The notes beneath the pieces were generated by a model that worked only from the letters and a program-made list of their open reading frames with translations, was not told the DNA's origin and did not search any database. Positions 2,991 through 27,265 of a stretch of DNA of 32,000 nt are shown piece after piece; positions within the stretch are counted from its first letter, which is position 1; each line of letters begins with the position of its first letter. The position numbers were made by a program, and so were the translations under genes. The stretch comes from Opitutales bacterium (GTDB lineage Bacteria; Verrucomicrobiota; Verrucomicrobiia; Opitutales; PNEW01): NCBI GenBank assembly GCA_965219535.1, contig CBDCNV010000002.1, positions 2,220,001 to 2,252,000 on the forward strand. The letters are read 5' to 3'.

Positions 2991-3084
2991 GGACGCGCTC
3001 CGTCGCGTCCGCTTCATTTGCAGTCCCTAGCACGCTTCTTCAATTACTACATTTTCAACGCGGTAGGGACACCGCGTTCCACCT
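2991..3084. repeat. REP/BIME-like hairpin cluster (family B), copy 1
   Basis: It has three parts. GGACGCG-CTCCGT-CGCGTCC (2991..3010) is a perfect 7 bp stem. GTCCCTAGCACGC (3023..3035) follows. AACGCGGT-AGGGAC-ACCGCGTT (3057..3078) plus CCACC completes it. The same arrangement occurs at 7149..7222. Confidence 0.75.
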
Positions 3085-3116: not shown

Positions 3117-3234
3117 TTGTCATTGCGAGGAGTAGCACGACGCGGCAATCCAGGGGAAAGCCGGTCACGTGTTGAAAGCCCATGGAATGGAAGATATCGC
3201 TGCGCTCGGCTGATAGCCGTCCTCGCAATGACAA
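3117..3234 (+). repeat. MITE-like element, family A copy 2
   Basis: Termini are TTGTCATTGCGAG (3117..3129) and CTCGCAATGACAA (3222..3234). Internal CCAGGGG and GGAATGGAAGATATCGCTGCGCTCGG blocks match the other copies. Confidence 0.8.
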
Positions 3235-3326: not shown

Positions 3327-4121
3327 TCATTCAATCGTCAATTCTTCAATTTCGACAGTAATCGCATCTCCATCTTCATTGGCGAATGTGGCGTCGATAC
3401 TCAATGTCGGTTGTGGGGTATTGTCCGATTTAAAATTGTTCTGTGTGATCAGGGTTTCAAACCCGGTCGTTGTCGATCCGCTCTCCGCGACAACGACCGC
3501 GGCACCGTTTGTTTGCATTAAGTCTCCCCCGGTGATTCTCAAACCGGGATTACCAGCGGGTACCGTGAATGATCCCTCACCGAATAGAAGATGCGGAACT
3601 GCGTCGCCATCGGCATCGATATCACCGACTGTCAAGCGTACCGCAATCGGTACCCCGCGCGCATCGACACCGACCTTTCCGGTGCTTCCACTGAACGCAG
3701 CATTTGACAGTTGCATGCCGCCCATGCCCGTGGAGTTAACAACTTCGACAAGCGTCACGTCTGCCTGTGCGTCATAGACTTGTCCCTCGGGGAAGAGGGC
3801 CTGGTTAACCGCGTTGATCGAGCCCACGGTGAAGATACTGAAGAAGGTATTGGCGTCAGCTCCGTCGATGATCACGCTCGGTTTGCCGGTTACGTACTCC
3901 ACTGCCTGGTTGTATCGCGGGGGAATGGCTGGGGCCAGGAAGGTCGCCGGGTCCAGAGTTACGTTAAAGGAACCGGCGCCCGAGAATTCGACTTGCACAA
4001 TGTCTTCTGTTTCATCCATGAAGGAGACGCGGGTAATCTGGTTCGGTCTCGCTTGTAGTTGGATGTTTTCACCCGTAAGTAAAATCTGGTCGAAGACATT
4101 ACCGTTAGGATGCTGGATGTT
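3327..4121 (-). CDS. C-terminal portion of a large secreted protein frame, or a separate hypothetical protein starting at ATG 4019
   Basis: The 230 aa ORF 3327..4019 stays open upstream for a further 34 codons, to 4121, in exactly the frame of 4122..5558. No Shine-Dalgarno-like sequence precedes ATG 4019 (the upstream mRNA reads CUCCUUC). I recognise no domain. Confidence 0.6.
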   Translation of the reverse strand, partial: NIQHPNGNVFDQILLTGENIQLQARPNQITRVSFMDETEDIVQVEFSGAGSFNVTLDPATFLAPAIPPRYNQAVEYVTGKPSVIIDGADANTFFSIFTVGSINAVNQALFPEGQVYDAQADVTLVEVVNSTGMGGMQLSNAAFSGSTGKVGVDARGVPIAVRLTVGDIDADGDAVPHLLFGEGSFTVPAGNPGLRITGGDLMQTNGAAVVVAESGSTTTGFETLITQNNFKSDNTPQPTLSIDATFANEDGDAITVEIEELTIE

Positions 4122-5558
4122 TTAACCGGCGATATCACCCGTGCCGTCGAGAACGAGGGGCACGGCCGGTGCTGCTACCGTGACGACTGCGGTTTCACTG
4201 TCCGCGGTCCCACCTACGTTAGTAATCTGTACCCAGAAGCTTGTGCTCGCAGTGAGGGCGCCCGTATTTAAAGTGTCTGTCGTTGCGCCCGCGACAGGAC
4301 TGGCGGTGTCACCGCTGTTTCCGGTATACCACTGGTAACTGAGATCATCACCGTTGGCGGCAACGGACAAGCTGGCCGCTGCACCAGATGCAACTTCCTG
4401 GTTCGCGGGCTGGGTGGTGATAGATGGAGCATCCGCGGGTGGGGGACCCTCGGAGCCGGTCCCAGGGGCGCCGATTGGGGTGAATCCAAAGTCGTCGATA
4501 CCTGTATGGCTGAATACATCATCGTTAAGATCGGGATCGTCCTTAAATACAAGTCTGCCAATTCCGCCTGGCGCTCCTAATTCCACCGCGTTGACGGTAA
4601 AAAATTTGGGTTTAAATTGCGGATCAAGACCCGACTCAAAATTAGTGAAGGTGCCGAGCAGATTATCATTAGTATCATAGACTTCAAATGAGCCATCGGG
4701 ATCCTGCAATTGTACTCTGACTACACTTTGAGCGTAAAAATCTACTTCATAAGCCGGTGTTTCAAAGATGACCGTGAATTCCTCACCATTTCTAATCGCA
4801 TAACCTTGTGATTGCGAGTGAATTAATCCACATGCGCATGAAACAGATGCTACAATCTGACCCCCATCAAAGGTCGCTGAATTGGGAGATGCACCAATAG
4901 TAATAGGGCCCGATAATCCTGAACCGACTCCAAATTCTTCAAACTGGGTGTAGACACTATTGTTGGCAGGCTTATCGGTAATTGTGTAGCCAAGATCATC
5001 AATGGAAAGTTTGGCTGTAACATTGAGAAACTTTATTTCTTTTATGCCTTCGATAAATTCCTGGTCAGTTCCATCAAGAAAATTACCACTGTCAGCGACA
5101 AAGCTTTGCAATGGGGGGTTGGCGCCCGGGCTGATGTTGGCTGGCAGTCCTTCAACCTCACCATTTTCTCCAATCACGGTCGTAACAAAAGGCAATCCGC
5201 CGGCGAGACCACCTTCTGAGTTTGCATCTCCTCTGATCTCGATTTTGCCACCCCCTGTTGATTCGGCCGCGTAAAATTCGATCGTATTAATACCTCGGCT
5301 ACTTACAATTCGCCCTTCCTGGCTGGGACCAAGGGTTAAAGCTTTTGTTCCTGAGTGCAATAGCGTCGGATCTTCTAAGGTCTCGATGGTGAAACCAAGA
5401 AACTGAATATCATTCGGCGGTTCACCGAGGGTGAATTGACCCGATCCTTCTGCCCCTTCAAAGTCGAGAAATACTTCCTGGTCTTGAGGTGCGGCCTGCA
5501 GGAATAATGGAAAAATCAGCAATGCTGACGTTACGGGTAAAAACTTTTTTAATTTCAT
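4122..5558 (-). CDS. Secreted protein with a C-terminal Ig-like domain (adhesin or glycan-binding-like)
   Basis: 478 aa. The signal peptide is MKLKKFLPVTSALLIFPLFLQA/AP. The C-terminal segment ITTQPANQEVASGAAASLSVAANGDDLSYQWYTGNSGD...AVVTV has the bacterial Ig-like pattern with a YQWY motif. The ORF ends at a TAA that is in frame with the next ORF. Confidence 0.75.
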   Translation of the reverse strand: MKLKKFLPVTSALLIFPLFLQAAPQDQEVFLDFEGAEGSGQFTLGEPPNDIQFLGFTIETLEDPTLLHSGTKALTLGPSQEGRIVSSRGINTIEFYAAESTGGGKIEIRGDANSEGGLAGGLPFVTTVIGENGEVEGLPANISPGANPPLQSFVADSGNFLDGTDQEFIEGIKEIKFLNVTAKLSIDDLGYTITDKPANNSVYTQFEEFGVGSGLSGPITIGASPNSATFDGGQIVASVSCACGLIHSQSQGYAIRNGEEFTVIFETPAYEVDFYAQSVVRVQLQDPDGSFEVYDTNDNLLGTFTNFESGLDPQFKPKFFTVNAVELGAPGGIGRLVFKDDPDLNDDVFSHTGIDDFGFTPIGAPGTGSEGPPPADAPSITTQPANQEVASGAAASLSVAANGDDLSYQWYTGNSGDTASPVAGATTDTLNTGALTASTSFWVQITNVGGTADSETAVVTVAAPAVPLVLDGTGDIAG

Positions 5559-7092: not shown

Positions 7093-7262
7093 CTTCGTCT
7101 TCGTCTGCCTCCTCGTCTTCGTCCATATTTATTTACGATCCAATTAATGTGGAGCGGGCTGTCCCTAGCACGCTTCTGCAGTTATAACTTAACCAAACGC
7201 GGTAGGGACACCGCGTTCCACCTTGATTTTGTATTATATAAATGAAGAGTACGAAGACGAAG
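7093..7262. repeat. Nested inverted-repeat composite: CTTCGT hexamer words flanking a BIME-like pair (family B copy 2, 7149..7222)
   Basis: CTTCGTCTTCGT (7093..7104, and again at 7112..7123) is the exact reverse complement of ACGAAGACGAAG (7251..7262). Between them sit GTGGAGCGGGCTGTCCCTAGCACGC, a 22 nt AT-rich spacer, and AACGCGGTAGGGACACCGCGTTCCACC. Confidence 0.75.
7196..7230 (+). terminator. Probable intrinsic terminator for the 5753..7063 gene
   Basis: AACGCGGT-AGGGAC-ACCGCGTT hairpin followed by CCACCTTGATTTTGTATT. Confidence 0.45.
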
Positions 7263-22355: not shown

Positions 22356-23090
22356 GGGTCATGCCTAGAATAGACACATATCAGATGTGTAAGCTATTCT
22401 AGACAAATGAGAAATAAGTATGTACATCGTTCAAAAATTTCTGAGGCCAAATTTCGGCAGTTAGTAAAGTGTTTTAGCTTGGATATGGAAGCGTTGAAGA
22501 TAGCCCAATTGACAGGATTGAATCGTAACACGGTCAACCGTTATTTGCGCTTGTTGCGGGAGCGTTTGTTGCAGCAATGTGCGCAGGCCTCGCCTTTTAG
22601 GGGGTCGGTGGAAATGGATGAGTCCTACTTTGGAGGCAAAAGAATTCCAGGGCAAAGAGGTCGGGGTGCATTCAAGAAAGTGCCCGTCTTCGGGTTGCTC
22701 AAGCGTAATGGGAAAGTCTATACCCAGGTTGTACGCAATGTCTCCAGAGCCGCTCTGCATGCGGTGATCCAAGGGAGAGTTACTTTTGACAGTGTGCTTT
22801 ATTCTGACGGGTGGCGTGCTTACAACGGCCTCGTGGATCTGGGCTATAAGAAGCATTACCGTGTCAATCACAACGACAACGAGTTTGCCCAGGGACACTC
22901 CCACATTAACGGGATTGAATCTTTTTGGGCTTTTGCTAAACTTCGATTGGCTAAGTTCAAAGGTCTTTCTCGTAGGACCTTCCAACTGCACCTCAAAGAA
23001 ACTGAATATCGCTTTAACCATCGTCATCAAAACCTCCATCGTAACATCCTTAATATGTGCTTAAGATACCCTCTGTTCTAGGCATGACCC
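22356..23090 (+). mobile_element. IS1595-family insertion sequence, IS1016 group-like, apparently intact
   Basis: 735 bp. Perfect 15 bp terminal inverted repeats are GGGTCATGCCTAGAA (22356..22370) and TTCTAGGCATGACCC (23076..23090). An 8 bp direct duplication AATTTTAA flanks it (22348..22355 and 23091..23098). It holds a single transposase ORF. Confidence 0.9.
22407..23081 (+). CDS. ISXO2-like (DDE_Tnp_IS1595) transposase
   Basis: 224 aa. VEMDESYFGGKR, LYSDGWRAYNGL and HINGIESFWAFAKLRLAKFKG are typical of IS1016/IS1595 transposases. Confidence 0.9.
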   Translation: MRNKYVHRSKISEAKFRQLVKCFSLDMEALKIAQLTGLNRNTVNRYLRLLRERLLQQCAQASPFRGSVEMDESYFGGKRIPGQRGRGAFKKVPVFGLLKRNGKVYTQVVRNVSRAALHAVIQGRVTFDSVLYSDGWRAYNGLVDLGYKKHYRVNHNDNEFAQGHSHINGIESFWAFAKLRLAKFKGLSRRTFQLHLKETEYRFNHRHQNLHRNILNMCLRYPLF

Positions 23091-23113: not shown

Positions 23114-23140
23114 GGTGGAACGTGCTGTCCCCAGCGTGTT
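23114..23140 (+). repeat. REP-like hairpin (family B), copy 3, with a T-rich tail (possible terminator)
   Basis: In GGTGGAACGTGCTGTCCCCAGCGTGTT the stem AACGTGCT/AGCGTGTT pairs with G-U wobbles. It is followed by TTGAAGTTATA. Confidence 0.6.
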
Positions 23141-23271: not shown

Positions 23272-24150
23272 ATGAGTGTATTAACTAAAGAGGATAAAAC
23301 CTTCTGGGAGGAGAACGGTTACGTTGTCATTCACAACGCCGTTCCACCAGAAAAGGTCAAAGCTGCAAAGGCTGCGGTTTGGGATTTTTTGGAAATGCAG
23401 CCCGACAACCCGGATAGTTGGTATCCCGACCCGCCCCGGAAGGGGATCATGGCAGAGATGTATCAGCACCAGACATTGTGGGACAACCGCCAGTACCCCC
23501 GCGTTCATCAAGCCTTTGCTGAAATCTGGGGAACAGAGCGATTGTGGGTAAGTATTGACCGCGCAAGCATGAACCCACCGGACCGCACATCCCGAAAAGA
23601 AGCTGGGAAATTGAACGGTGATTCCCCTTCAAAACAGCCAATTCCGTTGCCGTTGCATTGGGATATCCCTGTAGAACCACCCATACCGTTATGTGTTCAG
23701 GGGGTGCTCTATCTGACGGACACAGCAGCGGATGGGGGAGCGTTCATCTGTGTGCCGGGGTTCCATCGAAAACTCGAAGCGTGGTTGGCGAATTTACCGG
23801 CGGATGCCGATCCGCGTAAGCAGGATTTGATGAGTCTGGGTGCAACACTGATTCCAGGTAAAGCCGGTGATCTCATCATCTGGCATAGTTCTCTGCCTCA
23901 CGGGGCAGGTCTTAATACAGGAAGGTATCCACGGGTCGTGCAGTACATCACCATGTTCCCGGTGCAGGAAAAAGACGAAAATATTCTAACTCGTCGCGTT
24001 AACGCATGGCGTAATAACCTGGCAGGTGTGATCGTCGAAAGCACCGGCTGGAAGGGGGAATTACGTAAGGAAAAGGAACATGAACTAGGGCAAACGGCGA
24101 AGCTGTCACCGTTAGGGCGAAAGCTGTTGGGGTTGGATTTGTGGGAATAA
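23272..24150 (+). CDS. PhyH-family Fe(II)/2OG dioxygenase, group I paralog 2
   Basis: 292 aa and collinear with 21400..22233 and 26167..27060: FWEENGYVVIHNAVPPEKV, LHWD, CVPGFHRK, LPHGAG. Confidence 0.82.
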   Translation: MSVLTKEDKTFWEENGYVVIHNAVPPEKVKAAKAAVWDFLEMQPDNPDSWYPDPPRKGIMAEMYQHQTLWDNRQYPRVHQAFAEIWGTERLWVSIDRASMNPPDRTSRKEAGKLNGDSPSKQPIPLPLHWDIPVEPPIPLCVQGVLYLTDTAADGGAFICVPGFHRKLEAWLANLPADADPRKQDLMSLGATLIPGKAGDLIIWHSSLPHGAGLNTGRYPRVVQYITMFPVQEKDENILTRRVNAWRNNLAGVIVESTGWKGELRKEKEHELGQTAKLSPLGRKLLGLDLWE

Positions 24151-24174
24151 GAGTCGAAAGTCGAAGGTCAAATG
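24151..24174 (+). repeat. Family C octamer array, copy 5a
   Basis: GAGTCGAAAGTCGAAGGTCAAATG lies directly after the stop codon. Confidence 0.7.
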
Positions 24175-24193
24175 TCTAAAGCGGGGGAAAAGT

Positions 24194-24228
24194 CAGTGAA
24201 CAGTGAACGGTAAACAGTGAACAGTGGG
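24194..24228 (+). repeat. Family D heptamer array, copy 3
   Basis: CAGTGAA CAGTGAA CGGTAAA CAGTGAA CAGTGGG. Confidence 0.8.
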
Positions 24229-24238
24229 GGAGCGCTAG

Positions 24239-24315
24239 CGCGCGTCAAAAAGTCAACAGCCGTCGCCAAGGCTATGGCCGTCAAGAAAGGTCAAAAAGTC
24301 AAAATGTTGAAGATG
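24239..24315 (+). repeat. Family C octamer array, copy 5b (degenerate, with an internal non-repeat stretch)
   Basis: GCGCGTCAAAAAGTCAAC ... GTCAAGAAAGGTCAAAAAGTCAAAATGTTGAAGATG. Confidence 0.65.
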
Positions 24316-24328
24316 AGAAATTGTCGTA

Positions 24329-24355
24329 GGTGGAACGCGGTGTCCCTACCGCGTT
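24329..24355 (+). repeat. REP-like hairpin (family B), copy 4
   Basis: GGTGGAACGCGGTGTCCCTACCGCGTT is the exact reverse complement of the distal arms at 3058..3084 and 7196..7222. Confidence 0.75.
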
Positions 24356-24398
24356 ATTCTTGACACTCTTTGTTTATTCTTAGTTAAGATCGCAACTG

Positions 24399-25241
24399 AT
24401 GTTAAGTCGCAGAAAAGGGTATTTGAAGCCGCGGACGGGCCGCGTTTCTAAAGCAAGTCGTCAGTTGGAGGACGAGGGTTACACACTTTTACGGAAGGTG
24501 CTTAGCGAAGAGGAAGTCAATAATCTCGCACAAGAAATCAATGAGGTTTATGATAAGCTGCCTCCCGATCGCCGGGCGAGCCTTGGTATTTTGGAAGAGG
24601 ATCAGGCTTTTCGTTATGAAATGTTCAATCGCAGTGCCTTGTGCCAGGAAGTTGTCGCCCATCCGAATATCTTGAAGACTATAGAACCTTTGTTGGGTGA
24701 AGATTGTCACGTTATTGCGAACACGAGCTGGCGCAATCCACCGGGTTCAGATCCGGAACATAAGGGCGGAGTCTGGCACATAGACGGCGGTCCACACATT
24801 CCACTTACCGATGATCAGGTATGGCCGAGCGACATCCCACATCCGATTTTTGCGATCGGTACACATATCTTTCTCAAGGATTGTCCAATGGAATGCGGCC
24901 CTACGGGCGTAATTCCCGGGAGCCATCTTTCAGGCAAACCGGCACCGCTCAATTATGATATGTCGGTGACTTGGAACAATGTTTCGGTAAAGCCCCTTCC
25001 TGCCAAAGCGGGCGATGTCGCGATGTTCGTCTCAGATATTTGGCACAGACGGATGCCAACATCCGAAGAAGATAGTGGCCGATTCTTTCTCCAGGTGCAT
25101 TACGCGCGAAGAGACATAGCGCAACGATTAAGACGGACAGCTGATGTCAATCAAGTCTCGCCACAAGCCATCGCGCGCATCAAAAGTGATCGTGAAAAAA
25201 CATTACTCGGGTTGCACCCCCCGAAATTCTATGACGGTTAA
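24399..25241 (+). CDS. PhyH-family Fe(II)/2OG dioxygenase (singleton type)
   Basis: 280 aa. LEDEGYTLLRKVLSEEEV N-terminus, WHIDGG (HxD), GVIPGSHLSG and IWHRRMP. Confidence 0.8.
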   Translation: MLSRRKGYLKPRTGRVSKASRQLEDEGYTLLRKVLSEEEVNNLAQEINEVYDKLPPDRRASLGILEEDQAFRYEMFNRSALCQEVVAHPNILKTIEPLLGEDCHVIANTSWRNPPGSDPEHKGGVWHIDGGPHIPLTDDQVWPSDIPHPIFAIGTHIFLKDCPMECGPTGVIPGSHLSGKPAPLNYDMSVTWNNVSVKPLPAKAGDVAMFVSDIWHRRMPTSEEDSGRFFLQVHYARRDIAQRLRRTADVNQVSPQAIARIKSDREKTLLGLHPPKFYDG

Positions 25242-25259
25242 AAGAATCAAATAAACCAA

Positions 25260-26015
25260 ATGGAATTAAAAGGAAAAGCAGCTTTAATCACGGGCGGCAA
25301 CAGCGGAATCGGTAAAGCTATCGCATACGCCTTGGCGGAAAGGGGAACTGAAGTACTGATAAGTGGCCGACGGGAAGACCAGAACCGCGCGGTTGCCGAA
25401 GCGATCAGTAAAAAAACCGGGACCCGGGTAGAGGCGGTAACCGCCGATGTCAGTCTTGAGGAAGATTGTGAAATGATGGTGCGCCGAACAATTGAACTGT
25501 TTGGAAAAATCGATATCTGTGTTAATAGCGCCGGGGTCTCAACGGGACCCCAATTTTCGGACCTTTCCACTGAAGTCTTTGATCAAGTACTGAAAACCAA
25601 TTTATACGGAGCGTTCTGGTGTTCACGAGCCGCATATAACGCGATGCGTAAGAATAAACTAAGTTCTCCGGATGATATTCGTGGTTATATCATAAACATA
25701 TCATCGGTTGTAGGACTGGAAGCTTACGCGCGAAGTGGGGCTGGGAGCGGCGTTTACAGCGCTTCCAAATTCGGCATGATGTCGCTCAACCAGGGCATGT
25801 CTGGTTCGGGGCAGAAGGAGTTGATAAAAGTTACCGCGATCTGCCCGGCAATGGTTGCTACGCCAATGACTGACGAATGGAGAAACAACAACAGTAAAGA
25901 AGGTGATGAATTTATTGAACCAGAAGATGTAGCAGAAACGGTCCTTTACCTCACACGCCTCTCACGTGCCGTCTGGCCCGTGCAGGAAGTTTTACCCCGA
26001 CGTGAAGTGGAGTAG
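25260..26015 (+). CDS. Short-chain dehydrogenase/reductase (SDR)
   Basis: 251 aa. Cofactor motif ITGGNSGIGKA, NSAG, catalytic-type NISS and YSASK (YxxxK). It starts 18 nt after the upstream dioxygenase stop. Confidence 0.88.
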   Translation: MELKGKAALITGGNSGIGKAIAYALAERGTEVLISGRREDQNRAVAEAISKKTGTRVEAVTADVSLEEDCEMMVRRTIELFGKIDICVNSAGVSTGPQFSDLSTEVFDQVLKTNLYGAFWCSRAAYNAMRKNKLSSPDDIRGYIINISSVVGLEAYARSGAGSGVYSASKFGMMSLNQGMSGSGQKELIKVTAICPAMVATPMTDEWRNNNSKEGDEFIEPEDVAETVLYLTRLSRAVWPVQEVLPRREVE

Positions 26016-26060
26016 AAGAGCTAAGCGATAATGCGTATATGCGTGAACGAGACAATTGAA

Positions 26061-26086
26061 GATTGCGGATATCGGATTGCGGATTT
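26061..26086 (+). repeat. GATTGCGGAT-word repeat (family F), left copy
   Basis: GATTGCGGATATCGGATTGCGGATTT. 23 of 25 positions match the reverse complement of 27266..27290. Confidence 0.7.
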
Positions 26087-26115
26087 ATCGTAATGAAATC
26101 AACTATCTTTACCTT

Positions 26116-26157
26116 GAACCCTGAACCCTGAACCCTGAACCCTGAACCCTGAACCCT
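26116..26157 (+). repeat. Perfect tandem heptamer (GAACCCT)x6
   Basis: Six exact GAACCCT units ending 9 nt upstream of the ATG at 26167. Confidence 0.95.
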
Positions 26158-26166
26158 GCAACGTGC

Positions 26167-27060
26167 ATGTCCGTATTAAGTAAAGAAGATAGAGCATTCT
26201 GGGACGAGAATGGTTACGTTATCATTCACGAAGCTGTCCCCCCGGAAAATATAAAAGCTGCATCAGATGCGATTTGGGATTTTTTGGAAATGCAACCCGA
26301 CGATGAGGAGAGTTGGTATCCCGATCCGCCCAGCAAAAGTATAGGGGTCAAACTGTATCATCACCAGGCTATATGGGACAATCGTCAGTGCCCTCGCGTA
26401 TATCAAGCCTTTGCAGAGATCTGGGGAACGGATCATTTGTGGGTTAGTTTTGACCAGGCCAGCATGAGCCCACCGGATCGTTCTCACCCAAAAGATTCTG
26501 GAAAACTGTTCAGTGAGAACTCTTCAAAACAACCCATTCCGATGCACTGGGATATCCCATTAGAACGACCATTGCCATTTGCTGTTCAAGGGGTGCTCTA
26601 TCTGAAAGACACAACAGCGGAAATGGGAGCGTTTACCTGTGTGCCTGGATTCCATCGCAAGACAGAAGCATGGTTAGAAAACTTACCTGCGGATGCCAAT
26701 CCGCGTAAGCAAAATCTCATGAACCTCGACGTAAAGCCGATTTCCGGTAAAGCTGGAGACCTCATCATTTGGCAAGGTGCACTGCCTCACGGTGCAGGTC
26801 AGAATATAGCGAGGCATCCCCGGGTTGTGCAGTATATTAGTATGTTCCCGGCAAAGGAAGAGGACGAAGAAACGCGAAATTATCGCATCGATTCATGGCG
26901 CAATAACCTGGTAGGTGGTGGGGCTTGGGGTGTGATGCACGAGTTACCTTTCAGCAAGAAAGTGGAGTTGCACAAGGAAAAGGAACATGCGATAGGTCAG
27001 AGAGCAGAGTTGACCCCCTTAGGCCGAAAACTGTTGGGATTGGATTCCTGGGAACGCTAA
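26167..27060 (+). CDS. PhyH-family Fe(II)/2OG dioxygenase, group I paralog 3
   Basis: 297 aa. FWDENGYVIIHEAVPPENI, MHWD, CVPGFHRK, LPHGAG, and the same C-terminal LTPLGRKLLGLDSWER as paralog 1. Confidence 0.82.
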   Translation: MSVLSKEDRAFWDENGYVIIHEAVPPENIKAASDAIWDFLEMQPDDEESWYPDPPSKSIGVKLYHHQAIWDNRQCPRVYQAFAEIWGTDHLWVSFDQASMSPPDRSHPKDSGKLFSENSSKQPIPMHWDIPLERPLPFAVQGVLYLKDTTAEMGAFTCVPGFHRKTEAWLENLPADANPRKQNLMNLDVKPISGKAGDLIIWQGALPHGAGQNIARHPRVVQYISMFPAKEEDEETRNYRIDSWRNNLVGGGAWGVMHELPFSKKVELHKEKEHAIGQRAELTPLGRKLLGLDSWER

Positions 27061-27133: not shown

Positions 27134-27157
27134 AACGCGCTAGGGACAGCCCGCTCC
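27134..27157 (-). repeat. REP-like hairpin (family B), copy 5
   Basis: The minus strand reads GGAGCGGGCTGTCCCTAGCGCGTT, matching the proximal arm at 7151..7173. Confidence 0.7.
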
Positions 27158-27265
27158 GCAGTAAACTAGTTAGTATCAAAATTCTCTCTTGTGCCTTTTG
27201 TGGCTATCTTTTCTTTTACTCAGTTACCTCTGCGCCTCTGCGGTCCAATCTTCTTCCCCAATCAG

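Follow-up and report, generated by a model that had tools for sequence, protein, structure and literature searches.

Repeats and neighbouring features in the window

The window analysed here is a stretch of 32,000 nt (G000:C2:2220001-2252000) in the genome of a member of the Opitutales (Verrucomicrobiota), which is 4.47 Mb in size, has 45% GC and is assembled in two contigs (C1 and C2). A 27-nt REP unit, in which a GGTGG head precedes an 8-bp stem with a 6-nt GTCCCT loop, is repeated along it. According to the original prediction, the motif recurs at least seven times in both orientations, and every one of these sites does carry it, as six complete 27-nt copies and one truncated copy. The units are divided into type A, GGTGGAACGCG[G/C]TGTCCCTA[C/G]CGCGTT, and type B, GGTGGAGCGGGCTGTCCCTAGC[A/G]CGCTTCTT, and a covariance model (R1) was built from 43 distinct sequences of the REPs of this genome. 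The copies and the repeats bracketing one of the doublets are located as follows.

3023 to 3040, plus strand: truncated type B REP (GTCCCTAGCACGCTTCTT) without head and 5' arm, earlier listed as 3023 to 3035
3057 to 3083, minus strand: type A1 REP paired with the truncated B copy above, covariance-model match
7093 to 7123, no strand: CTTCGTC-type 7-nt repeats forming the left arm around the doublet at 7148-7222 (context, not a REP)
7148 to 7177, plus strand: type B REP (TGTGGAGCGGGCTGTCCCTAGCACGCT) with a TCT tail, left half of a tail-to-tail doublet (27-nt unit at 7148-7174, 42.9 bits)
7178 to 7195, no strand: AT-rich tail-to-tail spacer of the doublet (21 nt including the B tail)
7196 to 7222, minus strand: type A1 REP (GGTGGAACGCGGTGTCCCTACCGCGTT), right half of the doublet (47.7 bits)
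7244 to 7262, no strand: GACGAAG 7-nt repeats forming the right arm, the left arm in inverted and complementary form
23114 to 23140, plus strand: solo variant of type A (GGTGGAACGTGCTGTCCCCAGCGTGTT) whose stem includes two G-T wobble pairs (40.7 bits)
24329 to 24355, plus strand: solo type A1 REP in the gap separating two PhyH-family paralogues, covariance-model match
27134 to 27160, minus strand: solo REP (TGCGGAGCGGGCTGTCCCTAGCGCGTT), 5' arm resembling type B and 3' arm type A, head mutated (37.5 bits)

The two pairs that had been described as facing each other across an AT-rich spacer, at 3023-3083 and 7148-7222, are both real, with spacers of 20-21 nt. In the left half of the latter, a T replaces the first G of the GGTGG head and the GTGG tag is whole, while the right half, GGTGGAACGCGGTGTCCCTACCGCGTT, is a master sequence with 30 identical copies in the genome. 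The copy at 23114-23140 lies 33 nt beyond a transposase ORF of the IS1595 family, and the copy at 27134-27160 sits between convergent genes. A scan of the whole window against Rfam at gathering thresholds gave no match.

Several other features were noted around these copies, partly through comparison with the nearest named genome, a metagenome-assembled genome of the same genus (Opitutales MAG OY829953.1, referred to as G001), and with G003, a genome of the same family. The words CTTCGTC/GACGAAG occur within 80 nt of 44 of 147 REPs in the genome (30%), compared with 5% of random intergenic positions. A separate hairpin at 2991-3010, GGACGCGCTCCGTCGCGTCC, follows a methyltransferase gene; it is the top terminator-like call of the region and is kept in G001, and a 24-mer containing it, GGAGGGACGCGCTCCGTCGCGTCC, is found seven times in the genome. 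At about 3119-3232 there is a 114-nt element with terminal inverted repeats (CTCGCAATGAC being the right end and GTCATTGCGAGGAG the left), which is missing from the orthologous place in G001; 44 occurrences of its 14-mer were counted in the genome. Two neighbouring ORFs at 3327-5558 (minus strand) encode 230 aa and 478 aa, the latter with an Ig_7 / CHU_C-associated domain, and G001 and G003 each contain dozens of their paralogues at 72-80% DNA identity. The IS1595-family (ISXO2-like DDE) transposase ORF at 22407-23081 (plus strand) is missing here in G001, and a 91% identical copy is present in G003. Finally, three tandem paralogues of a PhyH-family dioxygenase occupy 23272-27060, with REPs in two of the gaps, and the array has expanded differently in G001.

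The hairpin family across the genome

The bare GTCCCT hexamer is not enriched (16 observed, 12.6 expected), whereas the whole 27-mer is far above chance. A seeded approximate search of the genome found 147 copies at three edits or fewer and 179 at five or fewer; the same search of the reversed genome, as a control, returned none at five edits or fewer and seven at six edits. At least 148 copies were recovered by R1, and counting of heads gave approximately 220 units after a chance expectation of 86 had been deducted, placing the copy number at about 150-220. Master sequences with 33, 30, 19 and 7 identical copies were identified, and one-step variants cluster around each of them. The GTGG tag, which takes up positions 2-5 and adjoins the stem, is nearly invariant in this genome. 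In the 12 nt upstream of the heads, genome-wide, AA is strongly preferred directly 5' of GGTGGA (78 and 85 of 116 copies), and this dinucleotide could belong to the element or reflect a preference for the target.

According to a crude ORF map, in which ORFs of at least 100 aa were picked greedily, 143 of the 147 copies lie outside such ORFs, which make up 84% of the genome. Gaps between convergent genes hold 37% of the copies as against 17.5% of the intergenic length, and divergent gaps are under-used. Tail-to-tail doublets number 61, more than random pairing would produce, and in 57 of these a type A copy is paired with a type B copy; their spans cluster at about 75, 105 and 145 nt. About half of the copies are solo REPs. 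The concern that the copies might be mere fragments of one larger repeat is answered by this distribution, since they are dispersed singly as well as in doublets. CRISPR repeats were rejected for this family because the copies are dispersed and not arrayed, and tRNA-derived elements and uptake sequences were also rejected as its identity.

When folded as single-stranded DNA, the type A forms reach -9.2 and -9.5 kcal/mol and type B reaches -6.7 kcal/mol, with a fixed G.A or G.G mismatch of type B at pair 10-23. The whole doublet region at 7146-7224 could form one long hairpin as ssDNA (-16.9 kcal/mol, z -3.2). The stems had been described as variable and still pairable, which was borne out, including the G-T wobble pairs at 23114. 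Covariation is present within the genome and is stronger across genomes. Within the genome, pair 7-26 (AU 29, GC 11, GU 3) and pair 12-21 (CG 33, GC 8, UG 2) alternate between Watson-Crick states, with mixed forms nearly absent, and lone copies add further compensated changes; these represent few independent events, because the copies are related. The cross-genome set combined nine representative rows from this genome with ten foreign rows that represent two further families of the order as well as one Opitutus MAG. In this set, changes on both sides were found in five of the eight stem pairs and 97.4% of cells pair, while none of 500 shuffles reached the observed pairing and slid registers did not come close either.

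RAYT genes, related genomes and probable mobility of the repeats

Pfam Y1_Tnp has four matching places in the genome, and two of them are RAYT ORFs, both lying outside the window, in agreement with the original statement that no RAYT gene is present in it. A search for a RAYT/IS200-IS605-like gene elsewhere in the genome, which had been proposed together with that statement, thus returned two RAYT genes, each flanked by the repeats described above.

C1:184973-185407: RAYT ORF of 145 aa, Y1_Tnp match
C2:885322-885756: RAYT ORF of 145 aa, Y1_Tnp match

The two ORFs are 94% identical, and both are intact single-domain Y1 proteins with the motifs PDHLHALL (HUH) and TYIRHNP (YxxxNP, with the catalytic Tyr) kept. 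They pass the Pfam Y1_Tnp cut-off of 23 bits with 25-26 bits. Against NCBIfam NF047646 they score 77.0 and 78.1 bits over the full length (E about 1e-21) and narrowly miss the equivalog cut-off of 80 bits, a score that is consistent with a divergent member of the RAYT family. The best match among solved structures is the E. coli TnpA-REP (4ER8), a weakly similar protein (23 bits, E 6e-4) with which the PDHLH and YIxxNP motifs align. Each gene has a type A copy (plus strand) on one side and a type B copy (minus strand) on the other, both with the head pointing away from the gene; in addition, the inner spacers are common to the two loci, as is a 25-nt head-to-head linker that connects to another B copy. 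G001 encodes three intact RAYT copies and one broken copy, compared with two in G000 (the genome studied here), and the C1 locus adjoins the same gene in G001.

Among the 41 genomes searched, REPs recognised by R1 were found in five, with 129 copies in G001, 72 in G003, 34-62 in G025 and 5 in G015, while the 36 other genomes of the order gave no R1 copy. A RAYT homologue is present in all five, a co-occurrence that describes genomes which are kin and is not a statistical test, and seven genomes without R1 matches possess distant RAYT homologues only. RAYT homologues of 47-52% identity were found in Opitutus sp. GAS368, an Oleiharenicola MAG and G025, where the flanking hairpins retain the GGTGGA head and have palindromes and stems that differ from those of G000; the GAS368 copies also retain a TGTCCCCA loop. 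The GTGG tag is invariant across the variants from G000, G015, G025 and GAS368.

The comparison with G001 covered about 150 kb of synteny between the two genomes, whose genes are 86-96% identical. In the gap that holds the doublet at 7148-7222, G001 has a corresponding doublet in which the A and B copies have exchanged places and the spacer is unrelated; a segment of about 250 nt that includes the partial doublet at 3023-3083 is missing from G001; the copy at 24329 is kept at the orthologous position; and no REP was found in the G001 gap orthologous to that of the 27134 copy. Alignment of five sites over this synteny revealed no clean empty site, insertion boundary or target duplication, and none is definable, because the intergenic DNA of the two genomes is too diverged.

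The core of the original prediction, a REP/BIME-like hairpin family bound by a protein, is supported by the genome-wide family, the covariation and the RAYT genes flanked by the repeats. The hairpins of the window are very probably GTAG/GTGG-tagged REPs, many of them arranged in A/B REPINs, and mobile, most likely moved by the genome's own RAYT. As non-autonomous mobile DNA, they would be recognised by this Y1 HUH tyrosine transposase, which, by analogy with the E. coli TnpA-REP and IS200/IS605 enzymes, is expected to bind the hairpin and the neighbouring GTGG tag in single-stranded DNA, and then to cut and rejoin the DNA beside them, so that REPs would be transposed as single strands.

A different transposase might instead move the REPs as a MITE, with the RAYT uninvolved, and the other two Y1_Tnp matches of the genome are candidates, namely an IS200-like TnpA (C2:935795-936259), with one REP-like copy about 590 nt beyond its gene, and a 327-aa Y1 protein (C1, about 90.4-91.4 kb). 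However, neither gene has A and B copies on both sides, whereas both 145-aa RAYT loci, as well as the homologous RAYT loci in other Opitutales, are REP-flanked, and such an origin is therefore very unlikely. It is extremely improbable, too, that the copies are decaying relics of a past expansion, immobile and changing only through recombination and small indels. Many copies are indeed truncated or carry loop inserts, and a clean insertion or excision event is not reconstructable, but master sequences with 19-33 identical copies, two intact RAYT ORFs with preserved motifs and a REP occupancy that differs between sister genomes with 86-96% identical genes all argue for continued movement.

The hairpins might also be non-mobile and selected by the host as intrinsic terminators or stabilisers of mRNA 3' ends, their likeness to REPs being incidental. 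Their stability, their enrichment in convergent and depletion in divergent gaps, and the T-rich stretch that follows the stem on its own strand in 55 of 147 copies would fit this, but most of this T-richness is due to the TCTT tail that is fixed in type B. The earlier suggestion that several copies are followed by T-rich tracts and probably act as terminators is not supported by the sequence of the window: none of the five copies scored (27134-27160, with more than three edits, was excluded) has a canonical T-tract, taken as at least five T in the 8 nt directly 3' of the stem, and all that the terminator scan called at these repeats are 5-bp stems at 3066 and 7205, which are out of register with the REP stem. 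In addition, dozens of identical copies in unrelated contexts and the two repeat-flanked RAYT genes point to copying, which makes a purely structural origin highly unlikely, and a secondary role of the REPs in termination or RNA stability may exist. Some observations count against mobility driven by the RAYT, among them the NF047646 scores slightly under the cut-off and the absence of a clean empty site or target duplication in the comparison with G001. No strand bias of the REPs relative to GC skew was found, although lagging-strand targeting might predict one, and the RAYT is present in two copies in G000 and three to four in G001, whereas the classical REPIN-associated RAYT is single-copy (PMC3116915).

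One of the closest described systems is from the same order. Opitutus terrae harbours GTAG-tagged REP families that form HH and TT dimers, and the tag of its GTAG-20 family is GTGG (Di Nocera, De Gregorio & Rocco 2013, PMC3733652). They share with the repeats of the present genome a short palindromic form, a GT[A/G]G tag at one end adjoining the stem, several coexisting sub-families that differ by complementary stem changes, HH/TT dimers, heterodimers and association with a RAYT. Unlike the O. terrae families, the repeats reported here have a different sequence and belong to an uncultured lineage with 45% GC, and nearly all of them are extragenic, while an intragenic position has been reported for many REPs of O. 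terrae; the strings searched for in the supplements of that paper were not found there.

The E. coli BIMEs are bound by IHF, gyrase and Pol I. Their resemblance to the present doublets lies in two REP types that alternate in orientation, semi-conserved linkers and a fixed mismatch in one type (PMC3479197), which here is pair 10-23 of type B; the E. coli TnpA-REP (4ER8) is likewise a Y1 HUH enzyme whose HUH and Tyr motifs align with those of the RAYT. The differences are the tag, which is GTAG in E. coli and GTGG here, and the weak similarity of the proteins given above. Previous study of the REPIN-RAYT systems of Pseudomonas fluorescens and Enterobacteria (Bertels & Rainey 2011, PMC3116915) described inverted pairs of REPs, separated by a short spacer, that are able to fold into a single long hairpin, master sequences surrounded by variants, and repeats flanking the RAYT gene, all of which are paralleled here. 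By contrast with these systems, the doublet in the present genome is a strict A/B heterodimer, with three to four fixed differences between the arms, and roughly half of the REPs are solo.

The REP/REPIN-RAYT system described here is ordinary and well supported and belongs to a class of element that is already known, so existing knowledge of that class is unchanged. It is a thoroughly documented example of such a system from outside the Proteobacteria, in an uncultured lineage of Opitutales, with a strict two-type doublet and a head tag that is kept across the order while the palindromes change with the transposase. It may be of use for comparing how RAYTs recognise their substrates, and, in annotation, such hairpins are not to be labelled as RNA genes or terminators.

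The loop and its inserted modules

The GTCCCT loop had been called almost invariant, which is correct as far as it goes, but nearly every other position is equally constant (mean column identity 90%), and the constancy of the loop may reflect recent copying as much as selection. Of the earlier proposal that structure and loop are both selected, for example as a protein-binding site, the part concerning a protein-bound REP-like family is supported; it is less clear that the constant loop serves recognition, since about 30 copies hold a 30-nt insert in it. These long-form REPs (57-66 nt) carry the module CCTGNCNGNCATAGCCTTGGCGANGGNTGN between GCTG and TCCCTA, and the loop therefore tolerates interruption. 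The module occurs 61 times in the genome, 25 times in intact REP loops, nine times with a one-sided REP arm and 27 times at non-REP places.

One doublet with the same flanks in both genomes (G000 C2:2205179-2205283 and G001 C1:2787161-2787239) differs by exactly 30 nt in one loop, and the REP concerned is given below.

G000 C2:2205227-2205283 and G001:C1:2787213-2787239: orthologous REP with and without the 30-nt module

A second module of 24 nt, CCTGCGACGAGCTCAGTCGAATCG, also occurs in REP loops and behaves like the 30-nt module. It is conceivable, as a tentative suggestion, that the REP loop is a preferred landing site for a second and smaller class of insertion modules, to which CCTGNCNGNCATAGCCTTGGCGANGGNTGN and CCTGCGACGAGCTCAGTCGAATCG would belong; the long-form REPs of 57-66 nt would then be nestings of mobile DNA in mobile DNA. 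In G001, the 24-nt module is found in the REPs that flank a RAYT gene.
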